From a virus (lineage: Duplodnaviria > Heunggongvirae > Uroviricota > Caudoviricetes): a stretch of 29,866 nt of DNA. The position numbers were made by a program, and so were the translations under genes. Positions 2,910 through 28,876 of the stretch are shown here, piece by piece (within the stretch, counting starts at the first letter, position 1; each line of letters starts with the position of its first letter). The stretch is taken from positions 64,001 to 93,866 of the IMG/VR virus record IMGVR_UViG_3300028908_000001; one strand, given 5' to 3'. The notes under the pieces were generated by a model. It was not told where the DNA came from and searched no databases. It was given only the letters and a program-made list of their open reading frames with translations.

Positions 2910-3890
2910 ATGCCAAAGCTGACGATTAGTGACGGCCGCTTGGTCATACGGGGACCTTCGGGCACACGCTATGTATTCGAGCGCGGGCAGTCCACGGAAG
3001 TTTTAGCAGAGGATGTGGAATACATTATGGCCACCGGGAAGCTATTCTCCTACTGGCAAGAGCAAATGGCCGCGCCGCAAAGGCAAATGCCGCTGCATAT
3101 CATTCGCCATCCGGGTTTGGGCGATAAAGTCTTTGCATTGGCCGCCGCGTGGGCCTTCAAACAAGAACACCCCGACATCACCATCTACTTCGAGACACAC
3201 GATTACTGCAAGAACTGGATTGAACGGGTGCCGTTTGTGCGATTCGGTCGCCCCGCCGAACTCGCTCAAACTGTCGATTTTGACAACATCCCTGCCAATG
3301 CGGGCGACCGCTGTAAGCTCTTCGGCAGGATGCTTGGCGTAGAAGTCAACGACATACGCTTCCCCGTGGAAACCTTTCCTTATTGGCGGCCGCTGCCTGA
3401 ACAGTATGCGGTATTCGCGCCGTGGTGCGGCCCTTGGAAACTGCGTAGTTTGCCACAGGATACCATCAAAGCCGCCCTACGGCACTTTACCGACGTTCCG
3501 CTTGCCATTGTATCAAAGGACCCTTGTCCGTTTCCGTCGTCGCATATCGATTTAACTGGCCCGCGCCAGGGGCCACTGGAGTGCTTGTGGGACATCCTTG
3601 GCAGCGCGGCGGCTGTTATCTCCGTCGATACCGGCATAACGTGGATGGCCGCCGCGTTGGGGAAGCCGACATTAGCATTCTTCGGGCACGTTCCTCCCCA
3701 AGACCGCGCGGCCGCCTGCCACACAGTCTATATCGTCGAGCCGCATATGGACTGCCCGATGTTTCCCTGTGGGGATCACGGTGCACCACCGGCCCCCTGC
3801 GGGGCCACAGAAGAACCCAAGTGCATGAAGGCATACACCCCAGAGGTTGTCCTCTGGAAAATCCGAGAGTTCTTGGCGATGGTGCTATGA
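2910..3890 (+). CDS. Glycosyltransferase family 9 (heptosyltransferase-like) with N-terminal extension
   Basis: GLGDKVFALAAAWAFKQEHP, AVISVDTGITWMAAALGKPTLAFFG and a C-terminal Cys cluster (CPMFPC..C..C) match WaaF/WaaC/WaaQ-type GT9. Confidence 0.88.
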   Translation: MPKLTISDGRLVIRGPSGTRYVFERGQSTEVLAEDVEYIMATGKLFSYWQEQMAAPQRQMPLHIIRHPGLGDKVFALAAAWAFKQEHPDITIYFETHDYCKNWIERVPFVRFGRPAELAQTVDFDNIPANAGDRCKLFGRMLGVEVNDIRFPVETFPYWRPLPEQYAVFAPWCGPWKLRSLPQDTIKAALRHFTDVPLAIVSKDPCPFPSSHIDLTGPRQGPLECLWDILGSAAAVISVDTGITWMAAALGKPTLAFFGHVPPQDRAAACHTVYIVEPHMDCPMFPCGDHGAPPAPCGATEEPKCMKAYTPEVVLWKIREFLAMVL

Positions 3891-4870
3891 ATATCTTATT
3901 TATTAGCCCCACGAGTTACACCGGCGGCGGCCAGCGCTGGCTGCAGATGCTGACTGGTGGCCTGACCGAACGTGGCCACCAGTGCAAGATTATCTTTTCC
4001 GAACGGGGACACCCCGGCACAATCTTCCACAACATCCTGCATGACATGGTGTTGCACCATCTCTGTTACAGGTGTTTCGAGTACGATTGGCCTGCCCGCG
4101 TGGCCGCTGCAATCGATGAGCACGAAATCGATGTGCTGGTTGTAGAACATTCGGAACGCATCGACGAGATAATTCCGTTGTGTAAGCGGCCGCCGCGGGT
4201 TGTGTTTGTAGACCACACTATGTGCCGCGAAACTGTAGACCAACTACGGGCCGTTGACGCTTGGGTTGATGAAGTGGTCTGCGTGTCGCACAAGATAGCA
4301 GCGAAGATAGACTGGTGCCCCGCAAAGGTGATACACAATGCCTGCCCGCCGGTGCCGAAGCTGGGGATAAACGTCCGCGAGTTCATGGGCATCCCCAAGG
4401 ATGCATTCGTGGTTGGCTACATCGGCCGCGTGGACCGCAACAAGACCGTGGACCATCTGGTTGGCGCAGCTATCAATCGCGGCTGGTGGCTGCTGATTGT
4501 CGGCCGCGGGCCGCTAATGGGCCATATCGCCAGCACGCAATACCCCCAGCTCAAAGTATTCCCAACCGATGTCTATTATGTCGGCGATTGGTACGAAGCG
4601 ATGGACGTATTCTGCTTGCCTTCTGAAGAAGAGGGCTTCCCCCTGACACCGTTGGAGGCGTTGTCGTGTGGTTGCCGCGTGGCGATGACACCAGTTTCGG
4701 ACTTCCCTGAGCTGTTCGGCGATAGCATAGCATTCTTCCCTCACAGGAGTGTTGAGTTGGTGGCCGCCGTGGAGAATGCGCCGCCGCCGGATGAGGCGCA
4801 GGCCATCATGCATGAGCAGCTTGGCCTCGACCGGATGATTGAGCAGTACTTGGAAGTTCTGGAGGGCTAA
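3887..4870 (+). CDS. Glycosyltransferase family 4 (GT-B, retaining)
   Basis: Start at ATG 3887 (ATGA overlap). MNILFISP..GGGQRW N-terminus; VGYIGRVDRNK; DVFCLPSEEEGFPLTPLEALSCG (E-x7-E motif). Confidence 0.92.
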   Translation: MNILFISPTSYTGGGQRWLQMLTGGLTERGHQCKIIFSERGHPGTIFHNILHDMVLHHLCYRCFEYDWPARVAAAIDEHEIDVLVVEHSERIDEIIPLCKRPPRVVFVDHTMCRETVDQLRAVDAWVDEVVCVSHKIAAKIDWCPAKVIHNACPPVPKLGINVREFMGIPKDAFVVGYIGRVDRNKTVDHLVGAAINRGWWLLIVGRGPLMGHIASTQYPQLKVFPTDVYYVGDWYEAMDVFCLPSEEEGFPLTPLEALSCGCRVAMTPVSDFPELFGDSIAFFPHRSVELVAAVENAPPPDEAQAIMHEQLGLDRMIEQYLEVLEG

Positions 4871-4873
4871 CAC

Positions 4874-5629
4874 ATGAACTTCGGCATGATCTGGGAAGTA
4901 GACAAGAAACACAAAATTGCCAAAATTACATTCTGGGATGGATTTGTGATGTACATGCCCCATCGGGGCAAGTGGGACTGCGAGGCTTTTCGCAACTACA
5001 ATTCCGTTGTACTGCTCGACCAGTACCGTGCGGGCGATTTCATACACAAAGACGACATAGTAATCGACGCGGGTGCTCATGTGGGCTTGTTCTCGTATTG
5101 GGCCGCGCAGCGCGGGGCCATCATTCACGCATTTGAACCGTATCAGCCCAATATCGAAGCATTTCGGTTACTACTCGGGGAGTATTCGCTCGAAGACAAA
5201 GTGGTGATCGTCGGCCGCGCGTTGAGTGACGAAGGCGGCCGCGTGCCATTCTGGGAGCACCCTGAGAACACGGGTAGCGGGCGCATAACCATCGAGGGCT
5301 TCGGCACCACGGAAGTGGAGGCACAGCGTTTGGATGACTGGGTAGCAGATGCGAAGCTTGAGCACGTTGACTTTATCAAGATAGATACTGAAGGCCACGA
5401 GCGGCAGGTTCTACGCGGCGCGACAGAAACAATTAGGCAGTTTCGGCCTGTGATAGCCGCCTCAGCCTATCACTTCCCCGAAGACGAGAAGGACCTGCCT
5501 CGGCTTGTCAACGACATCGTGGACGGCTATCATATCGTCGTAGAACGCGCGCGGGGCTATTTACCATGCGAGAAAGTGATGTTCGCTGTGCCGGAGGAAC
5601 GTCTTGGAAGCCATAATCCTTGGGCTTGA
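4874..5629 (+). CDS. FkbM-family SAM-dependent methyltransferase
   Basis: VIDAGAHVGLFS, IHAFEP and LDDW..VDFIKIDTEGHERQVLRGA motifs. Confidence 0.92.
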   Translation: MNFGMIWEVDKKHKIAKITFWDGFVMYMPHRGKWDCEAFRNYNSVVLLDQYRAGDFIHKDDIVIDAGAHVGLFSYWAAQRGAIIHAFEPYQPNIEAFRLLLGEYSLEDKVVIVGRALSDEGGRVPFWEHPENTGSGRITIEGFGTTEVEAQRLDDWVADAKLEHVDFIKIDTEGHERQVLRGATETIRQFRPVIAASAYHFPEDEKDLPRLVNDIVDGYHIVVERARGYLPCEKVMFAVPEERLGSHNPWA

Positions 5630-6599
5630 TGGATTGGAACCTTCGTTGGCCCGCCGGTATGATTGTCTTTCGCTGGAGTATCGGGGCTTCACGCAAGCCG
5701 AAACGAGCAAGACGCCCGTGGCGTGGACAGAGTTCGCCACGGGGCTGTCCATGTCAGAACACGGCATAACCGATTTCTGGCATCCTTCCGGCAGGGCATG
5801 GCTGAGCACCGACATCAAGCGGCCTTCCTACTGGTGGAATAGGCTTGACTATACTGTTGGGGTATTGGATGTGCCCGTTGTTACCAGCCCCGCGCGACCA
5901 ATAAACGGCTGGATGGTTGGCGGGCACACCATATATCCAGAGAGCAGGTGGCCCGCCGACCTGCCGGAGATAGACCCCCGCTACGACGCTTACGATTTCC
6001 CCGTGGGTTGGGCGCAGCTTGCTTGGGATCACGAGCCGCTGTGGGCAGAAGTTATCAAACAGATTGATGTTTGTGTTGCCTTCGCGAGGTATCATGTGAG
6101 GACAACGAAGGAAGCGATAGAGAGGCTGATGGCCGCGCGGCCGGTAGACATACTCGTCGTCTACCAGCACATCTCGGACAACATCGGCCATGGGTTCCTC
6201 ACCTGGCATCGTGAAGTATGCGAACAAACCTACTACATGCTGAATGCCCTGGCGCGGTGGCTGTGGAAGACCTATGATCCCGAGCTAAAGATTGTGCTGA
6301 GTGACCACGGGATGGTACCTGTTGAGCAAGATAGCCTTCGCCACCACCGGCGGCAGGTAACAGTAGATGGTCAAGTTACCTGGGAAGGCATGTTGAACGT
6401 GCCGCGCTTCGGGCAATTGTACACCCTCTGTTCGGGGGCGCATTCCGACGACCCGCCCGGGCACTTAGCTTCCAATCATCCGATGTTCCAAGGCACGTGG
6501 CGCTTGCGTGATATAGGCGACGCGATTGTGGGTATACTACAACCGGCGGCCGCCGGGGATGATGTTAGACATCACCTCGCAGCGTTGGGCTATCTATAA
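5604..6599 (+). CDS. Alkaline-phosphatase-superfamily enzyme (type I phosphodiesterase/nucleotide pyrophosphatase-like)
   Basis: TTG start after GGAGG. Motifs IILGLDG, KTPVAWTEFATG (Thr nucleophile region), DNIGH, VLSDHG and a C-terminal HLAALGYL. Confidence 0.82.
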   Translation: MEAIILGLDGLEPSLARRYDCLSLEYRGFTQAETSKTPVAWTEFATGLSMSEHGITDFWHPSGRAWLSTDIKRPSYWWNRLDYTVGVLDVPVVTSPARPINGWMVGGHTIYPESRWPADLPEIDPRYDAYDFPVGWAQLAWDHEPLWAEVIKQIDVCVAFARYHVRTTKEAIERLMAARPVDILVVYQHISDNIGHGFLTWHREVCEQTYYMLNALARWLWKTYDPELKIVLSDHGMVPVEQDSLRHHRRQVTVDGQVTWEGMLNVPRFGQLYTLCSGAHSDDPPGHLASNHPMFQGTWRLRDIGDAIVGILQPAAAGDDVRHHLAALGYL

Positions 6600-6620
6600 T
6601 AGCACTCGGAGGAAGCCAAC

Positions 6621-7046
6621 ATGGGCAGTGACTCTATGCGGGCGTTTCTGGAAGAGAAAGAAGCCTATGAAATATTCAACCTCGCAGCGTGGCCCCTATG
6701 GAATGATGCTTGTGCATTGATTGTGCTGCGCTGCGATGAGAAGAGATGCAAGCTCATACAACAGCTTGCCAAAGGCTCAGTCAAAACCCATCTTGTAGAT
6801 AGCCACACGATTGTGCTTTACAAATACGATTGGGCGTTGGAACTGTATAAAGCAGCGCAGCAAATAGAAGACCCGCGCTTGCGAGTGGCTCTTGTCGCCC
6901 TCCTCACAGGGGGAGCACCCCGAAGCATTCACGACACGCTGGAATGGATTGAGGACGAGAGCGAAGAAGCATTAGAAATAGCCCTGCTCGAAGCGGGGCT
7001 ACTAAGCGAGGAGCATGGCAATGGTCAAGGTAATACTGGAGTATAA
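6621..7046 (+). CDS. Hypothetical protein
   Basis: GGAGG RBS at 6608; it fills the gap inside the operon. No family recognised. Confidence 0.7.
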   Translation: MGSDSMRAFLEEKEAYEIFNLAAWPLWNDACALIVLRCDEKRCKLIQQLAKGSVKTHLVDSHTIVLYKYDWALELYKAAQQIEDPRLRVALVALLTGGAPRSIHDTLEWIEDESEEALEIALLEAGLLSEEHGNGQGNTGV

Positions 7047-7968
7047 TGGCCACCGCAGCGAACAAGTCGTAGAACCAATCATGGAGTTCCGCGACAAGCG
7101 TTTAGCTCTTCCTTCCGACTTCTTGGAAGCCCGCACGGTGGCCGTCGTCCGCGACGGCGGCCTCGGCGACGTCATCATGCTCACGGCGGCCATCCATCGT
7201 ATGGTGGAACTCTATCCCCACCTGCGCGTTGACTACTACGTCAACCCCATCTACGTGGAACTCTTCAAAGGTGACCCCTATATTGCTGATTGTCGCCCGC
7301 TGCAGGCCCTCGACAAGCGGTTCTATGATCTTGTGCTCGACTGCCGCCAGGTCGTGGAGAAGAGTCACCATGCGAAAGAAATAGACCGCGTTACGCTGTT
7401 CTCGATGCGACTTATCGGCGAAGAACCCCGCGAAGGCCCACGACTCTTCTTGCAGCCCCTGACTGGCGAACGTCATTGGCATGTGGACTCACTACTACAA
7501 CAAGCCACGGGCAAGCGCGTGGCCATTGCCCCTCGGTCAGCCTCTCCCTATCGCGATTGGCCCCATGCCAACGAACTGGCACGGCTCATAAAACAAAGCG
7601 GTAATACCCCCTACATCATAGATCATCACGATGAGAAGCTGGCCGCCGTGCCGGAGGCTATCCCTGCGAAGCTCGATCCTCTGCAGATAGCGTGGTTCCT
7701 TAAAGAAGTAGACGTGCTGGTCAGTACCGACACTGGCGTCTACCATGTGGCGGGGGCCGTCGAAGATGGGCCGTTCATGGTGGTTCTCTTCGGAAGTATC
7801 TTCCCGCCGCGCTTGCGCATGGCATGGTACAAGAACTACACAGCGCTGTTTGACCCGTCTTTGCCGTGTTTGGGATGTGATATGAGTCCCAAGTGTAAGC
7901 CGCCCGCGCCGTGCTTGGCGAACATCTCTGCGGAGCGCGTGTGGGAGACCATCGCGGGGCGGCTATAG
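7015..7968 (+). CDS. Glycosyltransferase family 9 (heptosyltransferase-like), second copy
   Basis: RDGGLGDVIMLTAAIHRMVELYP; DVLVSTDTGVYHVAGAV; C-terminal CLGC..C..PCL..ISAERVW. Confidence 0.9.
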   Translation: MAMVKVILEYNGHRSEQVVEPIMEFRDKRLALPSDFLEARTVAVVRDGGLGDVIMLTAAIHRMVELYPHLRVDYYVNPIYVELFKGDPYIADCRPLQALDKRFYDLVLDCRQVVEKSHHAKEIDRVTLFSMRLIGEEPREGPRLFLQPLTGERHWHVDSLLQQATGKRVAIAPRSASPYRDWPHANELARLIKQSGNTPYIIDHHDEKLAAVPEAIPAKLDPLQIAWFLKEVDVLVSTDTGVYHVAGAVEDGPFMVVLFGSIFPPRLRMAWYKNYTALFDPSLPCLGCDMSPKCKPPAPCLANISAERVWETIAGRL

Positions 7969-8047
7969 TGGAGGCGGCGGGAATCGAACCCGCGTCCGCC
8001 CCGGCGGGCTAATAGCCGCGCCGAGAACGTCGAGGCCTTCCGCCCCC
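7969..8047 (-). ncRNA. Miniature tmRNA: tRNA-like domain only, with no tag reading frame or pseudoknots
   Basis: Minus strand reads GGGGGCG GAAGGCCTCGAC GTTCTCGGCGCGGCTATTAGCCCGCCGGGGC GGAC GCGGG TTCGATT CCCGC CGCCTCC A. It has a 7-bp acceptor stem with G3:U and discriminator A, a stemless D-loop ending TCGAC, the GGAC linker and a canonical T arm, all as in ssrA. Confidence 0.85.
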
Positions 8048-8050
8048 CCA

Positions 8051-8389
8051 TCAATGTCCGAACAACATCTTGGCCGCCGCGAATGGGGCGCAAGTCAACG
8101 CAACCCACGAAAACCACAACCGCCACAGGGCGAACACCGCCACGATGACCGCTACTCCTATCATGGCCCAGCAGCCGTTGATCTCCGCCTGCAGCATTGA
8201 GTCGAAGTTGCCTTCCTCTGCTATGATTTGTTCTAGGCTGCGTTTGCGCCGATAAAAATGTCGCCCAACAAGCGCGGCGGCCACCAGCAAAACAACCGCA
8301 AACACCATCCCAGCGATTGCTTGCAGCCTGACGTATGCTAACGCGGATGCCCACATATGATTGCCGATATTGACAACAAAGTCACTCAT
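8051..8389 (-). CDS. Small two-TM membrane protein
   Basis: Two hydrophobic stretches (AIAGMVFAVVLLVAAALVG; WAMIGVAVIVAVFALW); co-oriented with the arm. Confidence 0.7.
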   Translation of the reverse strand: MSDFVVNIGNHMWASALAYVRLQAIAGMVFAVVLLVAAALVGRHFYRRKRSLEQIIAEEGNFDSMLQAEINGCWAMIGVAVIVAVFALWRLWFSWVALTCAPFAAAKMLFGH

Positions 8390-8432: not shown

Positions 8433-8741
8433 TTATGCAGTATTTTTAGTCTCTATGGTGCCTACCTTTTCCACCCGGTATACATAGATACCGGTGGTGT
8501 ACTGCTCGATTTCCTCGACTGTCAGCTCATGCCCACGCTTCTCCGGCGGCATGTCCAGCGCGACAACGACAACTTCTTCGGCTTCCGCCGCCAGATCGAG
8601 CGGCAGCACCCCAATAACGCGCTTCCCGTGCACGTCATCCCTAGTGGCGTGAGAGATGACCATTTCATCGCCACTTATGATGCCGCGCTCACGGAGATAT
8701 TCCACCAGCGCTTGATGTCGGGTCACCACAATTGTTTCCAT
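8433..8741 (-). CDS. csx16: Csx16-like (Cas_VVA1548-type) protein, candidate cyclic-oligoadenylate ring nuclease
   Basis: VVTRH..LVEYL, VIGVLPLDLAA and LDMPPEKRGHELTVEEI match the Csx16 pattern (SRH.GA, IGTLP..LAA, L..P...RG.EL..EE) and the size of about 100 aa. GGGAGG RBS lies 8 nt upstream. Confidence 0.8.
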   Translation of the reverse strand: METIVVTRHQALVEYLRERGIISGDEMVISHATRDDVHGKRVIGVLPLDLAAEAEEVVVVALDMPPEKRGHELTVEEIEQYTTGIYVYRVEKVGTIETKNTA

Positions 8742-9122: not shown

Positions 9123-9160
9123 TCACCCACACTTAGCATATCCACATAGCGGGCACTTCA
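9123..9160 (-). repeat. Imperfect direct repeat, copy 1 (functional RNR 3' end)
   Basis: Pairs with 8765-8802. Confidence 0.9.
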
Positions 9161-12100
9161 TACATCCTTCTGAGTGTTCCATCGGCCCGCCGCATTCTGG
9201 GCAAGCACCATTCTTGCGCTCTTCGATCTGTACTCGCTGGCCCACGGCGGCCTCCAAGGCCTGTCCAAAAGCATCAGCACACGACAATACCTGGCGGCCA
9301 CCGGGTCCCCACGCGGGCATGTGACACGATATGCCACGCAGGTGCTTGATGATGTGCTCGGGGGCCACGCCTGAACGCAGGGCCAGCGAAATCATGCGGG
9401 CCAGTGCCTCCATCTGTGACGAAGCACATCCGCCAGCCTTCCCGATATTTCCAAAGACCTCAAAGGGCTTACTTTCCTCATCGAAGTTGATGGTGACGTA
9501 TAGTGTCCCGCATCCGGTAGTTACGGCCCGCGTTTCGCCCCTCAAGACATGGGGCCGCTTGCGCGGGCCTTCTTGCTTCTTCTCTTCTTTCTTCTTGCCC
9601 GTGGTCAGCACCTGCCCCGCGCGGCAACCATCCCTGTACACCGTGATACCCTTGCAGCCCAGATTGTATGCCAGCATGAATGCTTTGGCAACATCATCCT
9701 CGGAAGCATCATGCGGCATGTTGATTGTTTTGGAGCAAGCCGCATCTGTGTACTTCTGAAACGCCGCTTGGATACGCACATGCTGCTCTGGTGGCACTTC
9801 GTGGGCCGTCACGAAGAGTTTCTGTATGTCTTCGGGGACTTCTGATAACCCACGAACGGTGCCGCGAGCGGCCACCTTCTTCATCAATTCCTCAGAATAG
9901 AAGCCGCGGGCGCGGGCTATCTCCACAAACAGCGGATTGACTTCCACCAGCGTCTCGCCATCGAGAACATGCTTCTCATACGCCACGGCGAAGAGGGGTT
10001 CGATACCGCTTGAGCAGCCCGCGATGATGGAGATGCTGCCCGTCGGGGCTATCGTTGTACATGCCGCATTCCTCATCGGGCGGCCATCTTTTGCCCAAAC
10101 ACTTTCTTCCCACAGCGGGAAGTTGCCGCGCTCTTGAGCCAATGCGGTAGAAGCATGGTGAGCCGTATTCTGGACGTGGCTCATAATCTTCTCGGCCCAC
10201 TCGATAGCCTCGGGGCTATCATAGGCCACGCCCAGTTTAATCAAAGCATCGGCGAAGCCCATGATACCGAGGCCGATCTTGCGACTGGCCCGCGTGGCCT
10301 CCTCTATCTCCGGTAGCGGATACTTGTTGACGTCTATCACGTTGTCCAAGAACCGCACAGCCAGCGCAACTGCTTGGGCCAGTGCATACCAGTCGATGTG
10401 ATCCTCATGCACGAACTTGGATATATCTATTGAGCCGAGGTTGCACGACTCGTAGGGCCGCAGCGGTTGTTCCGCGCAGTTCCCAGTGACTATGCCATTG
10501 AATATGAGGCTGTGATATGTGGGCTGAGTAACGTCGTAGACCGACTCCTCGCCGATATAAGTAATTTCTGCAATCTCATCGCTGAACCGCTGGCGCTTGC
10601 GCAAGACTTTTCCTTGCCGCCAAGCCTCGTACTTTTCTTTGTGATGTGGCAACCGCCATCCTACAAGCTCGGCGAAGCGGGTGCGCGACTCACCATCAAT
10701 AATTAGCTCATACCAAGCAGCACATTGGTATGCCTTGGAGCCGCCGTGGCCATCAGGCAATAGGTGCTCACCAGCATCCCTGCGCTTGTAAACGCGGCTA
10801 AAAATGCCGAAGTTGGCCAGCAGCTTCTGCACATCATGCAACAAAGAGGGGCGCGTGCTAGATAGGCGGCAAGAACAGCGCGTTCCATCACTTGCGCCTA
10901 TTACGGTGCCATCGGTAGCAAATAGCCCATGCAAGTAGCCTATCACGCATTCGCGCGTTCCTTGCCATATCAGCTTCGGTACATGGAATTTGCAATCCTC
11001 GGTGACGCCAATGGAAGCGAGGGCGCGGCTTAATCTCTTAGAAGCCCACATCCACTTGTCGCGCTGGTCCTGTATTTGCTTGCGCGGCGACTGTTCGGGG
11101 ACCAATTGTTTGATAGCCGCTTCTATATCGGGGGCCAACACCTTCTTGGCACCCCACAAGCCGATGTTGACGCGCCCCGACTTATCCCAGTGGCCGTCGC
11201 CAGTTAGCACGCCTACAAGCAGCCCCAATTCATAATTGCCGAGCTGCCCCCAAGCGCCTTCGCCAGATTGGATGAGTAATTCATCCCCCACGCGAAGCTC
11301 GGAGAGCCGCAGTTTGCCGCGCGAAGTATAGAACTCGTGCCATGCTGTAGCCTTAATCTCATACCCCGCCTTGGTACGCACGCGAAACACAGGAGCCTTC
11401 TTGGCAGTCATGAATGCAGGCGTGGCTTCTTGCAAGACAACCCCTCGTTCTCCATCGATGGTCCGCCGGTCAACAGCCACGCGCACCGCTTCTCCCGACT
11501 CATACAGCTCCTTCATAGGGACAAGGCCCCTCTCGGTGTGCAGCAGTGTATCACCCGTGACACATGGGTTAGTGCTTTCGATGGGATGATTGGGCAGAGT
11601 ATGCGCAGCATTTACGCGGTCGATGAACAGCAGCCCCGGCTCGCCCATTGCCCAAGCATTGTGCACTATCTTATTCCATACCTCGCGGGCCTTTAGTTTC
11701 TTTACAGCCTTCCCCGTGCGCGGATTGATAAGTTCATATTCTCGATCCTCCTCGACGGCAGCCATAAACTCGTCTGTAATGGCTACCGAGATATTGAAGT
11801 TTGATAGCCGCCCGTCTTCCATCTTGGCGTCTATGAACTCCAAGATGTCGGGATGGTCCACGCGAAGTATGCCCATATTGGCCCCGCGTCGTTTACCACC
11901 TTGCTTAATGGTCTGCGTGGCCGCATCATACGCCTCCAGGAAGGAGACTGGCCCGGAAGCCACACCCTTGGTTGAGCGAACAATGTCACCGCGCGGCCGC
12001 AGCCGAGAGAACGAAAAGCCTGTGTTGTGTATTACCACCAAACCGTTCTGACCCGCGACATAGTTATTGTATGTATCTACCGTGAAGTCGTAGAAGTACT

Positions 12101-13781
12101 CGGCTGGTGCTTGGGGTACCTCCACGGCCTTAACGCGCCGTAATGCCGGGATCAGCCGCAGCAGGGCTTCTACGCGCCGTTGGCTGGCCGGAGAAAGACG
12201 CCGTGTTGACAATATCTGTCCCAGCATCGCAGTGGCTTGCGCGGGGGAAACACGGTTCGTTAAACGCCAGCGCTGGACATACAGCGTTTCGCCAGCGACA
12301 TCTACACCCTTGCGCCAAGCGTCCACACAGTGAGTACTTATGCCCACCTCCGCCAACAGCTTTTCAACATCACTAAAATCCCACGTGATGTTCAGACCGG
12401 CAGTGGGGCTGCTTAGCCAAGCTTGCAGGCGGCGGAGACGCTGTGAATGCTGTATATATCTGCCAGACAAGTCATAGAGCCGCTGTAGCATATCGGTTCC
12501 AGACACATATATTTCATACGTCGAGCGCCAATGCGCTTTTCGCGGTTGACGACATCGCGCCCGCGTCCTAATGCCGCAGAGGCTGAACAAGGCCGCAAGC
12601 TGCTGGGCAAGTTTAGCACTGGCCGTAGCATAGACAAACTCTGCCTTAGACTCGGAAACAAAACCATCGGAGTCAAAGAGACCCGCGATGAACGTGGCAA
12701 TGGCTTCGCGACTCTGGAGGACAATCTTGGGAACCTCGACTTTTTCGTACTTCTCGCCCGGGCTAAGCCCGGTGTCGTGCGCCACGCACCGCACAAAATC
12801 TTGGTTGAGGCATGTAATGTAGAATACGCCATTCTTATCACGCTGTATAGCATAGCTGTGCCCCGCCAAAAGCGATAAAATCTGCTGCAGCTTCTTGATG
12901 GGTCCCCCATCCGCATCATACAGCCGCAGCCGCAAGCTTTGCTTGCCACTCAATCGGTGCCAACCCAAGTTGCCATTGCCGATGAAAAAGCCCAACAGAT
13001 AGGCATAATCAGGCGTGATATGCGGAACGTCAAGTAAATGCCCTATAGCTGCGATGGCGGTTTCGTTCGGAGCCACGACCCAATCGCCAGCCGCGAGCTC
13101 GGCAGCAGTCTTGGTGGCTACACGCCCGTTTTCAAAAACAAAAAACGGGTGCCAAGAGGATGTAAGCACGGACAGCCCACCGTTGAAGCGTACTAATCTC
13201 TGCTCCTCGGGCGGTACTCGGAAACGCCAAACATGGGTTATAGCAGCGGGCTTGAATGTGTTGTCTTGCGCATCGAAAGCGACAGTAGACAGCGCGCCGC
13301 TTGACACGCTGTAGCATTCTCCGGTGGGGGCCTCAACAGGCTCGGCTCCTCTGTGAATGGCATCCTCCACCACATCGCGGATCGGGCATAGTCCCGCAGT
13401 GTTAGTAAAGACGATGGCATCGCCGCTGATGCACCCGCCGCCCCCTTGATGGATCAGCGCCGCTTGTTTCATAGTCTCGAAGATACCATCCAGCGAGTCA
13501 TCGATGGGAAGTACGAAACAAGCGGATAGAAGCCCTATCTCGGTGCCCGCGTTCATCAACGTGGGGCTATTCGGCAAGAACTTCAGCGAAGACATTAGTT
13601 CATAGAACTTGGAGGCCCACTCGTCGGGGTCGTTGCCGTACCTTTCTTCAGCCGCCGCCACGGCGCGGGCCACCCGCCAGAACATCTCATCAGGAGTTTC
13701 TACAACGTTACCTTCCTCGTCGCGCAGGAGATACCGCTTCTCAAGCAGACGCAAAGCATTCTGGGACAAAGAAGCCCCCAT
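9123..13781 (-). CDS. nrdJ: Class II (adenosylcobalamin-dependent) ribonucleotide reductase containing two inteins; about 720 aa after splicing
   Basis: FLPNSPTLMNAG, LSACFV, GGKRRGANM, TNP|CAEQPL..ESCNLGS and TIAPTGSIS motifs, a C-terminal TSCPD-type domain and a Zn ribbon; no ATP cone. The start at 13781 follows GGAGG. Confidence 0.95.
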   Translation of the reverse strand: MGASLSQNALRLLEKRYLLRDEEGNVVETPDEMFWRVARAVAAAEERYGNDPDEWASKFYELMSSLKFLPNSPTLMNAGTEIGLLSACFVLPIDDSLDGIFETMKQAALIHQGGGGCISGDAIVFTNTAGLCPIRDVVEDAIHRGAEPVEAPTGECYSVSSGALSTVAFDAQDNTFKPAAITHVWRFRVPPEEQRLVRFNGGLSVLTSSWHPFFVFENGRVATKTAAELAAGDWVVAPNETAIAAIGHLLDVPHITPDYAYLLGFFIGNGNLGWHRLSGKQSLRLRLYDADGGPIKKLQQILSLLAGHSYAIQRDKNGVFYITCLNQDFVRCVAHDTGLSPGEKYEKVEVPKIVLQSREAIATFIAGLFDSDGFVSESKAEFVYATASAKLAQQLAALFSLCGIRTRARCRQPRKAHWRSTYEIYVSGTDMLQRLYDLSGRYIQHSQRLRRLQAWLSSPTAGLNITWDFSDVEKLLAEVGISTHCVDAWRKGVDVAGETLYVQRWRLTNRVSPAQATAMLGQILSTRRLSPASQRRVEALLRLIPALRRVKAVEVPQAPAEYFYDFTVDTYNNYVAGQNGLVVIHNTGFSFSRLRPRGDIVRSTKGVASGPVSFLEAYDAATQTIKQGGKRRGANMGILRVDHPDILEFIDAKMEDGRLSNFNISVAITDEFMAAVEEDREYELINPRTGKAVKKLKAREVWNKIVHNAWAMGEPGLLFIDRVNAAHTLPNHPIESTNPCVTGDTLLHTERGLVPMKELYESGEAVRVAVDRRTIDGERGVVLQEATPAFMTAKKAPVFRVRTKAGYEIKATAWHEFYTSRGKLRLSELRVGDELLIQSGEGAWGQLGNYELGLLVGVLTGDGHWDKSGRVNIGLWGAKKVLAPDIEAAIKQLVPEQSPRKQIQDQRDKWMWASKRLSRALASIGVTEDCKFHVPKLIWQGTRECVIGYLHGLFATDGTVIGASDGTRCSCRLSSTRPSLLHDVQKLLANFGIFSRVYKRRDAGEHLLPDGHGGSKAYQCAAWYELIIDGESRTRFAELVGWRLPHHKEKYEAWRQGKVLRKRQRFSDEIAEITYIGEESVYDVTQPTYHSLIFNGIVTGNCAEQPLRPYESCNLGSIDISKFVHEDHIDWYALAQAVALAVRFLDNVIDVNKYPLPEIEEATRASRKIGLGIMGFADALIKLGVAYDSPEAIEWAEKIMSHVQNTAHHASTALAQERGNFPLWEESVWAKDGRPMRNAACTTIAPTGSISIIAGCSSGIEPLFAVAYEKHVLDGETLVEVNPLFVEIARARGFYSEELMKKVAARGTVRGLSEVPEDIQKLFVTAHEVPPEQHVRIQAAFQKYTDAACSKTINMPHDASEDDVAKAFMLAYNLGCKGITVYRDGCRAGQVLTTGKKKEEKKQEGPRKRPHVLRGETRAVTTGCGTLYVTINFDEESKPFEVFGNIGKAGGCASSQMEALARMISLALRSGVAPEHIIKHLRGISCHMPAWGPGGRQVLSCADAFGQALEAAVGQRVQIEERKNGACPECGGPMEHSEGCMKCPLCGYAKCG
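10479..11564 (-). mobile_element. Intein 2 in RNR (362 aa, LAGLIDADG homing endonuclease) at the NP|C active-site position
   Basis: Begins CVTGDTLLHT and ends IVTGN followed by Cys. Endonuclease motifs LLVGVLTGDG and YLHGLFATDG. Confidence 0.93.
12024..13433 (-). mobile_element. Intein 1 in RNR (470 aa, LAGLIDADG-type) at the GGG|TG position
   Basis: Begins CISGDAIV and ends FYDFTV..NNYVAG..VVIHN followed by Thr. Motifs YLLGFFIGNG and FIAGLFDSDG. Confidence 0.93.
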
Positions 13782-13814
13782 CGACAAAGCCTCCAATCTA
13801 CAGGGGAATAGCGA

Positions 13815-16566: not shown

Positions 16567-17142
16567 CTACACCCCTAGCTCTTTTGTTATATGCCGCCAG
16601 CCGTCCACGTTTACATCATAATAGCGCAACTGGGCGGATGCCGCCATAGACCTATCGGCCACACTGTCGCCTATCACAACAGTACGCGGCGACGCTAAAT
16701 CTATCCCTAGCATCTCTTCGGCCGCCGCCAACATGCCCGTGCGTGGCTTGCGCCACGTGCATCCTTGCTCCCCAGTGTGGGTACAGACAAACACATGAAT
16801 ATCATAGGGCAGCGCCAGCGGCTCGAACTTCATATAGAGGTCGCCGCGCGGCCGCTTCTCTACAGCATAATATATCGTATCCGACACGCCGAGAACATCA
16901 CACCATTGTGATACAACCTCCAGCATAACTGCCTCGAATGCATCTAAGTCTAACAGCCCGCGACCGATACAAGACTGATTCGTCACACACACCAGTTGCC
17001 AACCGGCCAACCCTGCGCCATCAAGCGCTTCGACTGCTTCAGGTGTGATTTTGACTTGGTTGTGGCTAACCACATAGTACAGCCCTCGGCTGCTGCATTC
17101 TATGAGGGTGTCATCCCTATCAAAGAAAATAGCGGGTCTCAT
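16567..17142 (-). CDS. gmhB: GmhB-like HAD phosphatase (heptose-1,7-bisphosphate phosphatase family)
   Basis: AIFFDRDDTL, VCVTNQSCIGRG, CTH...C.WRKP.TGML and VIGDSVAD motifs. GGAGGT RBS precedes ATG 17142. Confidence 0.85.
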   Translation of the reverse strand: MRPAIFFDRDDTLIECSSRGLYYVVSHNQVKITPEAVEALDGAGLAGWQLVCVTNQSCIGRGLLDLDAFEAVMLEVVSQWCDVLGVSDTIYYAVEKRPRGDLYMKFEPLALPYDIHVFVCTHTGEQGCTWRKPRTGMLAAAEEMLGIDLASPRTVVIGDSVADRSMAASAQLRYYDVNVDGWRHITKELGV

Positions 17143-18023
17143 GATATGTACCTCCGTTCCCACAACCCCGAGACATACTGGTGCGCGAACCCATGGGCGT
17201 CGTTGACGTAGCCCAGCAGCGCTTCGGGGCTACCGTCGCCACTGGTAACCCACGCTTGCAAGAAAGCCGCCGAGAACGCATCACCAGCACCGGAATATGC
17301 CCACGGCGGGCAATCAACAGCCACCACGGGGACACTATCGACAAGCTCGCCGTCTACATAGAGCGTGGTGGGCTGCCGACCATGCGTTACTACGACGGCT
17401 TTGGTCTTTCTCATCCAATCCTCGCCGATGGCCTCGCGCCACGACATGAATTCTTCCTCATTTAGCTTGATGATAGCCTGCGCGGCCCACTCGTCCAAGT
17501 CTGCTGGTGGTTCTCTGCTGCCATCCCACAACAATTTGGCATCCGGTGTCATTAAATAATCCCTTGCCCGTCTCCAAACATCGGCCATGCCATATCCATG
17601 ATCCACCATTAAGACACCATCATAGGGCGGGCTTAGATGCCGTGGGGAGAATGGAAGCTCGTGAAATGCTTCCAACACAACAGTAGGACTTGGCGTGTCG
17701 ATCCTGCACGGTTTCTTGCCTTGTATACGCATCCGCAAGGCCGGCACACCCGACACGGGCACAGGAACCGTATGAACCTGTGCATGAAACGCACACATCC
17801 GCTGTATCTTTGTGCGCCAAAAAGAGATACCACCGAGAGGAGCCAAGAGAGACACGCGGGCCTCTGGAATTATCTGCTTAAGACACCAAGCAGCGTTGCC
17901 AGCCCCGCCGAGGGCATAGCGCGGGCTATCACACTTATACGTTGGCATATCCTCGCGGGTTGTTAGCCGCGCGGCTTCCAGTAAAACGTCGAGGAAGAAA
18001 TCACCCATGACTAGATAGCGCAC
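17139..18023 (-). CDS. PfkB/ribokinase-family sugar kinase resembling the HldE/RfaE heptose-7-phosphate kinase domain
   Basis: LVMGDFFLD, ALGGAGNAA, VLMVDHGYG, KLNEEEF, VVVTHG and SGAGDAF follow the RfaE kinase layout. GTG start at 18023; overlaps gmhB by 4 nt. Confidence 0.8.
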   Translation of the reverse strand: MRYLVMGDFFLDVLLEAARLTTREDMPTYKCDSPRYALGGAGNAAWCLKQIIPEARVSLLAPLGGISFWRTKIQRMCAFHAQVHTVPVPVSGVPALRMRIQGKKPCRIDTPSPTVVLEAFHELPFSPRHLSPPYDGVLMVDHGYGMADVWRRARDYLMTPDAKLLWDGSREPPADLDEWAAQAIIKLNEEEFMSWREAIGEDWMRKTKAVVVTHGRQPTTLYVDGELVDSVPVVAVDCPPWAYSGAGDAFSAAFLQAWVTSGDGSPEALLGYVNDAHGFAHQYVSGLWERRYIS

Positions 18024-18025
18024 GC

Positions 18026-18409
18026 CTACTCCCCCTCTGTGAGAAAGCCCGCTAAGGGATACGTCAGCCAACCAATAACCTGCAGCCAGAAATATATCTT
18101 ACCTATGAGATGGTCGGCCACGCCCGCCCACGCAAGCCAACCCCTGCCCCACACAAACCAGACGGCGGCACCTATCAACCCGAAAGCTGCCAATACGAGC
18201 ACGTACTCTGCCCAGATGCCCACACGCTGCCCCAACGGCGTCCGCAGCCACGCCTTGCCTTGTGCCGCTGTGGTAAAGACGCTGTTGACAAGGCTCGCCA
18301 CCAGCACAACGAGCGCAAACCGCGCGGCAGCTTCGTGGCCAACAAATATGTATGTCAACAGCCCCCAGAACAAGACGGCGAATATGGCCCTCACATATAT
18401 GCGCATCAT
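18026..18409 (-). CDS. Multi-pass membrane protein, holin candidate
   Basis: Three to four hydrophobic segments in 127 aa; lies two genes upstream of the endolysin. Confidence 0.55.
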   Translation of the reverse strand: MMRIYVRAIFAVLFWGLLTYIFVGHEAAARFALVVLVASLVNSVFTTAAQGKAWLRTPLGQRVGIWAEYVLVLAAFGLIGAAVWFVWGRGWLAWAGVADHLIGKIYFWLQVIGWLTYPLAGFLTEGE

Positions 18410-19155: not shown

Positions 19156-19722
19156 TCATGTTTGCAGTATACCCCACTCGGCGGCCTCTTCTTCAAAGAT
19201 GTACTTGCCCGCATCGTTTTCTAATAGCCGCTGCCAGAACTTGGCCGACTTTTTTGTCCTGTCGGCATACCAGTGCGCCAAGCGGGCCGTCACATTCTCC
19301 AAGAACTCTGTGTACACCTTCTGTTCGCCGTGCTTCATATAACCAATCCACGCCCCGACAGAATGTACGAAGAAATAGGCCCCGTCGGCCATCGTGCGGA
19401 TATCGCCCGCCAAATAGATTTCAACGGCCGCGCTCGACACCTGCCCGCAGTTGTGACAGCGAATGATTTTGCCCTTGGTGCGGGTTCGCATTAATGCATC
19501 GCGTATATGCTTGGCATAGGTCAGGTAGCCGCCGCCGCTATTAATCCACAACCGCACTTCACTCACATTTCGGTCGCGGGCTAACCGCTCTATGGCCAGC
19601 ACTATCATTGAAACGTGATCACGGTTGGTTAAGTCGCCGATATAAATGTCACCATGCTTTGCCGCCTCATCCCATGCCTTCCAAAGCTCAGCCGGAGTGT
19701 CTGGTTCCATTCTGAACATCAT
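19156..19722 (-). CDS. clpP: ClpP-like serine protease (S14)
   Basis: LWINSGGG, GQVSSAA (catalytic Ser position), FFVHS (His) and EEAAEWGI motifs; GGAGG RBS. Confidence 0.85.
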   Translation of the reverse strand: MMFRMEPDTPAELWKAWDEAAKHGDIYIGDLTNRDHVSMIVLAIERLARDRNVSEVRLWINSGGGYLTYAKHIRDALMRTRTKGKIIRCHNCGQVSSAAVEIYLAGDIRTMADGAYFFVHSVGAWIGYMKHGEQKVYTEFLENVTARLAHWYADRTKKSAKFWQRLLENDAGKYIFEEEAAEWGILQT

Positions 19723-19912
19723 CAGTCCTCCATCCACAGTTTGTGCAGTAGCCGCCCGGCTCTATCAAGATGCCGCCGCCCCGCTCCAAATCGAAACACT
19801 TCGGACAAGCCCAAAACTGAACAGCATCCTTCACTGGCTTGCCACGCCTGCCACACAATTGTACCAGTAGGCCCCACGGCGTTTCCTTTATAACCACAAA
19901 GCGCTGCATCAA
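19688..19912 (-). CDS. Small zinc-ribbon protein
   Basis: CPKC...CTNCGW; 4-nt overlap with ssb. Confidence 0.65.
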   Translation of the reverse strand: MMQRFVVIKETPWGLLVQLCGRRGKPVKDAVQFWACPKCFDLERGGGILIEPGGYCTNCGWRTDDVQNGTRHSG

Positions 19913-27779: not shown

Positions 27780-28876
27780 TGGCTCCCCCTCGGCAGTATC
27801 TGCATCGGCATCAGTATATACAAGAAGGCGTCACCGCCGACTTTTGTTAGCCGCGCGGGTGAGTACTTCCCAGAAAACGATAGCTCTACTTCATCTTCTG
27901 AGATCACATTTAGCGCTTCCGCCAAGTAGCGGCCGTTGAATGCAATCTCGGGGACTTCACCTTGGGTTTTGCAGGCCACGCGGGCCTCGGCGCGGCCAAT
28001 ATCGGGCGCTTCGGCAGTCAACACCAGCTCGTCATCCTCTAGCGCGAACACAATCCTGTTTGCGTCCTCGCGGGCCACCAATCCAACACGGTTGATAGCC
28101 GCCAACAGGTCCGCCGCTCCAATATACACCGAGCCGACGTACTCCGTTGGTATGACACGCTCATAATTCGGGAACCGACCCGCTATCAGTCGCGTCCGCA
28201 GTACCATGTCTTCCGCCGCGAACTCGGCGACGTGGCCGTCAGCAGAAAAGCGCGCTGTTTCGTAGTTCTTTAGCAGCCGCGCGGCTTCCTTCAAAAACAC
28301 ATAGGGAATAATAAGCTCCGCCTCGGGGCCACTTATATCGAGACGATACTGTGCAAGGCGATAAGTATCGGTGGCCACAAGTGTCAGGTCATCTCCAAAG
28401 GTGAATAGAACGCCCGTGAGGATCGGCCGGGTTTCGTCCTTCAGCGTGGCGTAAACCACATGGTCGATAGCCGCCGTCAAGTCGGGACCGTTTATGTTTA
28501 CCTCGATATTCCCCTCTGGCGGCGGCAACATCTCCCAAGTATTCGGCGGCATCATCCGCAACACGTACCGCGAACCGTTGCTGCTAACTGCCGCGCCGTC
28601 GTCTACAGTTTCGATGACGACAGTATCGCCACGAAGCTGTCGGACGACTTCCTGCAACAGCTTGGCTTGCACCAGAACGGTGCCTGTATCGCCCGTTGCT
28701 TCGACGCTGCGCTCGGCGTGGAGATACTCCAAGTCGCTGGCCGCCAGGCGCAGCCTACTCTCGGCAGCTTCCAAACAAATGCAACTCTGCACGGGCTGTG
28801 TGGACTTATCACCAGCCGCGCGGCTAACAAACGTCACTGCATCAGCCAGCACATCACGGGATACTTCTATGCGCAT
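27776..28876 (-). CDS. dnaN: DNA polymerase III beta sliding clamp
   Basis: Full-length 366 aa from MRIEVSR; RPILTGVL, VATDTYRLA, RLIAGRFPNY, IAFNGRYL and ILMPM motifs. Confidence 0.95.
   Translation of the reverse strand: MRIEVSRDVLADAVTFVSRAAGDKSTQPVQSCICLEAAESRLRLAASDLEYLHAERSVEATGDTGTVLVQAKLLQEVVRQLRGDTVVIETVDDGAAVSSNGSRYVLRMMPPNTWEMLPPPEGNIEVNINGPDLTAAIDHVVYATLKDETRPILTGVLFTFGDDLTLVATDTYRLAQYRLDISGPEAELIIPYVFLKEAARLLKNYETARFSADGHVAEFAAEDMVLRTRLIAGRFPNYERVIPTEYVGSVYIGAADLLAAINRVGLVAREDANRIVFALEDDELVLTAEAPDIGRAEARVACKTQGEVPEIAFNGRYLAEALNVISEDEVELSFSGKYSPARLTKVGGDAFLYILMPMQILPRGSQ

Follow-up and report, generated by a model that had tools for sequence, protein, structure and literature searches.

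Trans-translation is the main bacterial ribosome-rescue and quality-control pathway, and the locus described here, in an uncultured phage from a hydrothermal-vent metagenome, raises the question of why a phage would encode the two ends of a tmRNA without the part that normally lies between them. In tmRNA the tRNA-like domain (TLD) accepts alanine, SmpB binds where a tRNA would have its anticodon arm, and together they move into the vacant A site of a stalled ribosome (PMC4131195, PMC11915505). The initial annotation of this DNA described a 79-nt RNA consisting of such a domain only, and we ask here whether it is a genuine tmRNA gene, whether it belongs to a family, and what it might do during infection.

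The genome is a 93,866-bp IMG/VR record with 127-bp terminal repeats and is rated complete; the window referred to below is the whole stretch of 29,866 nucleotides that was analyzed and is the last 29.9 kb of that genome. Among listed sequencing runs, the sequence is present in one DNA data set, a hydrothermal-vent metagenome that is possibly its source sample, and in no RNA data set. The mini-tmRNA gene occupies genome coordinates 71966-72047 and its parts are listed in Table 1. Its first base, G1, lies 3 nt past the TGA stop codon (8053-8051) of the last ORF of the minus arm, and the CUA that follows discriminator A79, where CCA is not encoded, is the complement of the TAG stop codon of the convergent ORF; both the 3-nt spacing and the A-CTA end had been noted earlier and are confirmed by the sequence.

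Table 1. Components of the mini-tmRNA gene and its flanking ORFs (window positions), and TLD-only tmRNA genes in three cultured Streptomyces phages (positions in the extracted loci L313 to L315).
Feature	Position	Strand	Evidence or remark
Whole TLD-only tmRNA gene	7966..8047	-	Direct reading of sequence; RF00023 61.5 bits; family model R1 65.5 bits, E 7e-13
Predicted mature RNA, 79 nt	8047-7969	-	
Acceptor 5' strand GGGGGCG, RNA 1-7	8041..8047	-	G3 of G3:U70 at 8045
Stemless D-loop analogue, RNA 8-18, 11 nt	8030..8040	-	GG at 8037-8036 (RNA 11-12)
UCGAC, RNA 15-19, ends D-loop analogue	8033-8029	-	
P2-like closed hairpin, RNA 19-51	7997..8029	-	Constrained fold, centroid fold, Rfam alignment
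GGAC junction, RNA 51-54	7994..7997	-	Rfam consensus alignment
T arm GCGGG-UUCGAUU-CCCGC, RNA 55-71	7977..7993	-	Sequence, Rfam
Acceptor 3' strand CGCCUCC, RNA 72-78	7976-7970	-	
Discriminator A, RNA A79	7969	-	
CUA trailer, predicted to be replaced by CCA	7968-7966	-	
Last minus-arm ORF, 112 aa, hydrophobic, without family match	8051..8389	-	
Convergent GT9-like glycosyltransferase ORF	7015..7968	+	TAG stop 7966-7968
BRock TLD-only tmRNA gene	L313:1492-1572		Gap of annotated tRNA array
LuckySocke TLD-only tmRNA gene	L314:1496-1576		Gap of annotated tRNA array
Shaeky TLD-only tmRNA gene	L315:1491-1572		Gap of annotated tRNA array

Reading of the sequence bears out every detail of the two tmRNA ends that had been reported in normal order, namely the acceptor stem, the G3:U pair, the discriminator A, the D-loop, the GGAC junction and the T arm. 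The acceptor stem has 7 bp, and its G3:U76 pair in RNA numbering corresponds to tRNA position 3:70. G52 and A53 stand opposite A18 and G17, forming the tandem G.A/A.G pairs of the Rfam tmRNA consensus. UCGAC and GGAC are separated by exactly 31 nt, and together with C19 and G51 these form a 33-nt closed hairpin that stands in place of the pseudoknots and tag ORF of tmRNA, as had been proposed; in a constrained fold the hairpin of this copy has 14 bp, two single-base bulges and a 3-nt loop. Folded as a canonical TLD, the RNA has a free energy of -43.6 kcal/mol, which is 0.7 kcal/mol above the unconstrained minimum of -44.3 kcal/mol.

The two software checks suggested in the initial annotation gave clear outcomes. 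Rfam model RF00023 matches the window with 61.5 bits (E 6.2e-22) against a gathering score of 47, and the same match is returned in a whole-genome search; this is far beyond chance. The alignment runs from model position 1 to 374, and 18 nt of the RNA stand for 308 internal positions of the model. ARAGORN, applied to the window and to all 93,866 bp of the genome, calls neither a tRNA nor a tmRNA. An ordinary tRNA can be rejected, since there is no cloverleaf with a D stem and a 7-nt anticodon loop, ARAGORN finds none, and the hairpin loop is 3 nt. Rfam, a covariance model of the family (R1, described below) and the constrained fold all agree with the earlier reading of a tmRNA TLD without an mRNA-like domain. 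Measured against a canonical tmRNA, the tRNA-like domain is present, and the mRNA-like domain, with its resume codon, tag frame, stop codon and pseudoknots, is absent, the 31 nt between UCGAC and GGAC being nearly all paired. The gene has instead the features that define a TLD-only tmRNA: a 7-bp acceptor with G3:U70 and A73; in the Rfam and R1 alignments, a D-loop that lacks a stem and contains GG and UCGAC, tandem G.A pairs at the GGAC junction, and a GGGUUCGAUUCCC T arm; and a P2 closed by a short hairpin, in an RNA of less than 100 nt with no resume codon, tag ORF or pseudoknots. We conclude that this is very probably a genuine TLD-only (CDS-less) tmRNA gene of the mycobacteriophage DS6A type.

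The initial annotation held that known phage tmRNAs keep a tag frame and that natural tag-less forms are known only from some protist mitochondria, a belief that the DS6A record makes outdated. Hudson et al. 2014 (PMC4131195) list 'Mycobacterium phage DS6A (TLD only)', and this tmRNA has been on record since 2009 (Mao et al. RNA Biol 6:355, as summarized in PMC4131195 and PMC11915505); it appears as CDS-less in PMC11915505 and at the tmRNA Website as tmID 11587 / Phage__Mycobacterium.9. The 2025 tmRNA database contains 9 'standard, no CDS' and 79 bacteriophage sequences among a total of 97,179 (PMC11915505). A TLD-only phage tmRNA is therefore not unprecedented, DS6A being already known from these summaries, and a full-text search of the literature for other names under which such phage RNAs might appear found nothing relevant.

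We located the DS6A gene at coordinates 28478-28560 of JN698994, where it is unannotated. Like the element described here it is phage-encoded, about 80 nt long and in standard unpermuted order, with a G3:U70 acceptor, a discriminator A, a stemless D-loop, a short closed P2 hairpin and a T arm, and it too ends in A-CUA with no encoded CCA and is unannotated in its record. It begins 10 nt past the stop codon of gp33, compared with 3 nt from the upstream stop codon here, and differs in having GUCGAC, a GGCAC junction and a T stem with A:U pairs, as well as an inner GAAAACCGCACGCGG motif where this copy has a plain GC-rich 14-bp hairpin. The phages themselves are quite different, DS6A being a 60-kb temperate actinophage and the present one a 94-kb hydrothermal-vent metagenome phage.

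Other tmRNAs without a coding sequence are the jakobid and oomycete mitochondrial forms (Rfam RF02544) and the ∼65-bp Mallomonadaceae plastid tmRNAs, and these organellar RNAs are considered to be still helpful with incomplete mRNAs, together with SmpB (PMC11915505). They share with this element a natural lack of the tag reading frame, but they are usually permuted, AT-rich and vertically inherited from the endosymbiont, whereas this gene is viral and has the standard bacterial RF00023 as its best Rfam match. Full-length phage tmRNAs are also known, as in the Bxz1-type mycobacteriophages (PMC4131195). These have the same TLD consensus as the present gene, and that of Calle_1 also ends in A-CUA, but they are either 360-410 nt long or permuted and in two pieces, with an mRNA-like region that is missing here. 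T-arm matches in phages SM1, Tunturi_4 and Calle_1 were considered as candidate mini forms and proved to be full-length or permuted tmRNAs, showing that phages carry both kinds. With tRNA-Ala the element has in common the G3:U70 and A73 alanine identity, the T arm and predicted maturation by tRNA enzymes; unlike tRNA-Ala, it has no D stem, anticodon arm or variable loop.

Two of these phage tmRNAs lie in settings worth recording. In Pseudomonas phage SM1 (NC_041877.1) an unannotated permuted beta-type tmRNA (L121:2364-2815; RF01850 111 bits, RF04321 119 bits) lies in a 1.4-kb region that has no annotated features, with a tRNA-like sequence immediately before it. In Tunturi_4 (PP885687.1; L123:2120-2881) an unannotated permuted tmRNA (RF04321, 79 bits) begins some 5 nt past the end of a gene of ArfB-like size that carries the annotation 'RF-1 domain peptide chain release factor', such that two ribosome-rescue components sit side by side.

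A search of viral metagenomes for homologues and an analysis of stem covariation had both been proposed, and both support the reading of a conserved RNA. The IMG/VR database was searched with a pattern composed of GGGGNNG, UCGAC, a spacer of 15-45 nt, GGAC and a T arm, which matches at least 119 contigs, or at least 120 loci when this phage's own copy is included. By rough arithmetic, some 26 specified bases in a search of about 10^11 bases would give well under one random match. The at least 120 loci comprise 85 distinct sequences of 68-87 nt, and ARAGORN calls just 1 of 120. The DS6A gene does not fit the pattern. Eighty-three family sequences were aligned; a first MAFFT alignment gave a poor consensus fold, and the covariance model R1, incorporating the TLD structure, was built and used for realignment instead. 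DS6A, which was outside the training set, scores 65.1 bits with R1, and the present element scores as given in Table 1. In the R1 alignment standard pairs fill 94.2% of cells, whereas sliding the 3' partners by 1-3 columns lowers this to 44-57%. Changes on both sides are seen in 18 of the 23 pairs. The covariation score is 0.606, the slid controls reaching 0.094 at most, and the observed values are not attained in any of 500 shuffles. A model-fitted alignment favors structure and the slid controls carry the same bias, yet the gap is large. A looser scan recovered 14 further members in metagenome contigs, which have the same acceptor and T arm and quite different, compensated hairpins. The family also extends to cultured phages, with unannotated TLD-only tmRNA genes in Streptomyces phages BRock, LuckySocke and Shaeky that score 80-85 bits with R1.

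In most members, DS6A included, a 7-bp P2 stem leads through a purine-rich internal loop to a small CCG-tetraloop-CGG hairpin, and the consensus is AAAGCCGCAYGCGG. The inner part of AAAGCCGCAYGCGG, a 3-bp stem with a tetraloop that follows the purine-rich internal loop, is a motif common to most of the family. This inner AAAnCCGCAyGCGG motif, which is a majority trait recognized here and not a published criterion, is present in DS6A and absent from the present copy as well as from loci L062, L081 and L088. With its continuous GC-rich 14-bp stem this copy is thus a somewhat atypical member. A metagenome scan for the same 5' region returned no matches, and none of the 14 members from the looser scan has a related hairpin. 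Close relatives of the phage were sought in IMG/VR by pattern searches confirmed with tblastn, and the 102-aa Csx16-like protein encoded nearby led to two loci, neither with a mini-tmRNA; the GT9 protein and the primase-helicase led to none. Nor did blastn with 2.2 kb of surrounding sequence match any of 50,697 phage records. Because no close relative of the phage or of its hairpin was found, the selection evident in the alignments is that acting on the family and not on this particular copy.

The 3'-terminal 29 nt of the RNA, comprising GGAC, the T arm, the acceptor 3' strand and the discriminator, are identical to the 3' end of many bacterial full-length tmRNA genes. Among 121 occurrences of this 29-mer in bacterial genomes, 111 have a matching 5' end and correspond to tmRNAs of 344-422 nt, the remaining ten lack any 5' end within 600 nt, and none is a mini form; the TLD-only form is phage-specific within the sample examined. 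The 29-mer is common to Verrucomicrobia, Planctomycetota, Proteobacteria, Myxococcota, Actinomycetota and others, and host assignment by means of it therefore fails. A recent derivation from host tmRNA was also considered and rejected, because the P2 strands match those of none of the 111 bacterial tmRNAs that share both ends.

The first search pattern fixed G1-G4 and left their partners unspecified, and C72, C71, U70 and A73, all outside the pattern, are invariant in 83 of 83 family sequences, such that G3:U70 is present in every aligned member, with G3 fixed by the pattern and U70 free. The GG of the D-loop, also outside the pattern, and C74 are each conserved in at least 90% of the 83 aligned sequences, and C74 is so even though only 25 of the 85 unique sequences among the matches listed encode CCA. 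G:U pairs elsewhere in the RNA change freely to G:C or A:U in the same alignment. A second scan, in which the whole 5' acceptor strand was left free, found 46 new loci, 37 of them with a 6-7-bp acceptor; G3:U70 is present in 36 of these 37 and G:C in none, and pairs 4-7 covary. Both the fold and the alanine determinants of the TLD-only family are under selection, and the conservation of the latter points to selection for recognition by alanyl-tRNA synthetase (AlaRS).

What, then, might such an RNA do? It probably acts through SmpB on trans-translation, and the version that we favor, with a probability of about one half, is a charging-dependent one in which it would compete with host tmRNA by way of the host's AlaRS, SmpB and EF-Tu. 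The expression, processing, charging, SmpB binding and ribosome events that make up this scheme are what we infer from the sequence features. The RNA would be transcribed as the tail of the minus-arm operon, and since the stop codon of ORF 8051..8389 lies 3 nt before G1 it is probably cut from the transcript of that operon; there is no promoter-like site between this ORF and the RNA, and a scan for promoters and terminators around the gene gives no more than the shuffled expectation. Host RNase P would cut at G1, the 3' end would then be trimmed, CCA would be supplied by the host CCA-adding enzyme, and the host AlaRS would charge the product with alanine through G3:U70 and A73. Host SmpB and EF-Tu would bind the mini-tmRNA, which has no resume codon, tag frame or pseudoknots and so cannot complete trans-translation. 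It would thereby compete with host tmRNA for SmpB and stalled ribosomes, and SsrA tagging, hence the ClpXP-type degradation of proteins from broken messages, would be either blocked or replaced by the transfer of a single untagged alanine. Tagging could be prevented by SmpB sequestration, or by the mini-tmRNA itself taking the nascent chain. Ribosome entry with alanine transfer, one of the functions put forward in the initial annotation, may be favored indirectly by the invariant alanine identity set of the family. A more specific form of this proposal, that the alanyl-TLD together with host SmpB enters stalled ribosomes and accepts the nascent chain without a template, charging being obligatory, is conceivable but doubtful.

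The phage would have to rely on its host for these partners, as its complete genome has no gene for SmpB and none of the RF-1/ArfB type. Across the whole genome there is also no tRNA gene detectable with ARAGORN and no other RNA above the Rfam gathering scores, and the 25 Pfam families found most often in the 84 ORFs that lie outside the window include none related to translation. Rfam searches of genome 20000-24500 for a hammerhead ribozyme were negative both at gathering scores and at E <= 0.01. The minus arm encodes a ribonucleotide reductase (RNR) with inteins, a primase-helicase, a sliding clamp, a UvsX-like recombinase, RusA, a ClpP homologue and an M15 peptidase, and the plus arm glycosyltransferases and an FkbM methyltransferase.

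The RNR large subunit (9123-13796, minus strand) is 1557 aa long, with two Pfam stretches each of Intein_splicing and LAGLIDADG_3, and Hom_end. A stand-alone 102-aa Cas_VVA1548 protein (PF09652, E 2e-20; Csx16-like) is encoded at 8433-8741 on the minus strand with no CRISPR-Cas locus nearby, and its homologues in two IMG/VR phages (L125 and L126) are 51-55% identical. A HAD/PNK3P-type phosphatase and a PfkB-type kinase (16567-18071, minus strand), together with two GT9 heptosyltransferase-like genes, a GT4 gene, an FkbM methyltransferase gene and a type I phosphodiesterase gene (2910-7968, plus strand), look like a phage-borne set for heptose or glycan modification. The ClpP-family protease homologue (19156-19737, minus strand; PF00574, E 7e-11) lies amid replication and recombination genes, outside the head module, and any link between it and the mini-tmRNA is speculation.

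The best of the competing explanations, though on balance an unlikely one, is that the RNA is purely a sponge, titrating host SmpB, with charging and ribosome entry irrelevant. The initial annotation had raised SmpB sequestration and a block of SsrA tagging, and the precedent for it is real: a similar TLD-only molecule strongly inhibits endogenous tmRNA in E. coli, according to the accounts of Mao et al. 2009 in PMC4131195 and PMC11915505, and the summary in PMC4131195 indicates that this inhibition did not need chargeability. For the present RNA such an effect may be suggested by analogy, and the retention of the D-loop GG, UCGAC and GGAC junction of the tmRNA consensus is in keeping with it. 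However, G3:C70 would leave the helix intact and so should be acceptable in a sponge, yet all 83 aligned members and 36 of 37 divergent genes have G:U, and invariant A73 and a C74 conserved in at least 90% also argue for selection on AlaRS recognition. It is mainly because G3:U70 and A73 are invariant that the charging-dependent model ranks above the sponge.

The genomic surroundings of the family bear on an improbable alternative, that the RNA is a processing or punctuation element which recruits RNase P and 3' enzymes to define or protect the minus-arm mRNA at its 3' end, or to set cistrons apart, and which plays no part in translation once released. Among the matches listed, an upstream ORF on the same strand ends no more than 30 nt from G1 in 16 of the 62 loci having such an ORF, the spacing from the stop codon in this phage being 3 nt, and a convergent ORF ends within 12 nt of the discriminator, as here, in 5 of 19 convergent cases. 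A tRNA gene lies on the same strand within 160 nt in 16 of 82 unique loci, again among the matches listed. In at least six loci belonging to one clade (L003, L027, L030, L071, L097 and L107) the RNA is situated between two recurrent same-strand genes, which are most likely those for the prohead protease (S78) and the major capsid protein of a head operon; these are also the commonest of the 149 flanking proteins among the matches listed (9 major capsid proteins and 8 S78 prohead proteases, with no SmpB and no RF-1). Such contexts fit co-transcription with the neighbors and tRNA-type processing, and for the family they speak against use as an attP. However, punctuation needs only the acceptor/T minihelix and leaves G3:U70, A73, the tmRNA-specific D-loop and the G.A junction unexplained, although it could be a second role of the RNA beside its main one.

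Comparably improbable is that the gene is a decaying remnant, a non-functional stub left by internal deletion of a former full-length tmRNA. Full-length tmRNAs do occur in phages (Pseudomonas phage SM1, Tunturiibacter phage Tunturi_4 and Cellulophaga phage Calle_1), a deletion within helix P2 would automatically yield a closed hairpin, and this copy lacks the inner motif of its family and has no close relatives found that would show constraint; in principle it could be a recent deletion product. Against this, no TLD determinant is damaged, the fold comes close to the optimum, and the gene fits exactly between two stop codons, leaving no residual sequence. Its P2 strands are unlike those of any of the 111 bacterial tmRNAs with the same ends, and selection acts on this same architecture in over 100 further phage lineages.

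Two further proposals from the initial annotation fare considerably worse. An attP core, named there as an observation that would count against a functional RNA, would make the 3' half a site for recombination with the host ssrA gene. The genome does encode one tyrosine recombinase, and in many bacteria ssrA ends in the same 29-mer as this gene. The recombinase gene (genome 15685-16638) is, however, about 55 kb away in a tightly packed block of genes, making this role unlikely; attP needs only the 3' part whereas the complete 5' acceptor, D-loop and hairpin are present, an integrase is just 1 of the 149 flanking genes among the matches listed, and there is no second copy of the sequence in the genome, such that we regard this explanation as highly improbable. 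An anticodon-free decoy against tRNA-targeting defense nucleases is equally hard to credit, for although the RNA is generally like a tRNA and some members are in phage tRNA arrays, there is no anticodon stem-loop for anticodon nucleases to act on (most members have a tetraloop and this copy a 3-nt loop), and the conserved features are those of tmRNA and of no tRNA isoacceptor.

We have described here a class of tmRNA gene for which the literature offers one phage example and which is now seen in considerably more than a hundred phage lineages, cultivable Streptomyces phages among them. These genes are almost invisible to ARAGORN (1 of 120 among the matches listed) and absent from GenBank annotation, and so represent a known but badly under-annotated kind, for which BRock, LuckySocke and Shaeky provide experimental systems. 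The strict conservation of G3:U70 leads to the prediction that function needs charging, beyond SmpB binding. If the alanyl-TLD does accept nascent chains, it would constitute a phage-encoded, template-free branch of ribosome rescue, giving untagged and undegraded products after the addition of a single alanine, or repeated alanine addition, and the published SmpB-sponge effect would be part of the story. A phage RNA that hijacks the proteins of trans-translation would be a compact, RNA-only takeover of the translation quality control of its host.
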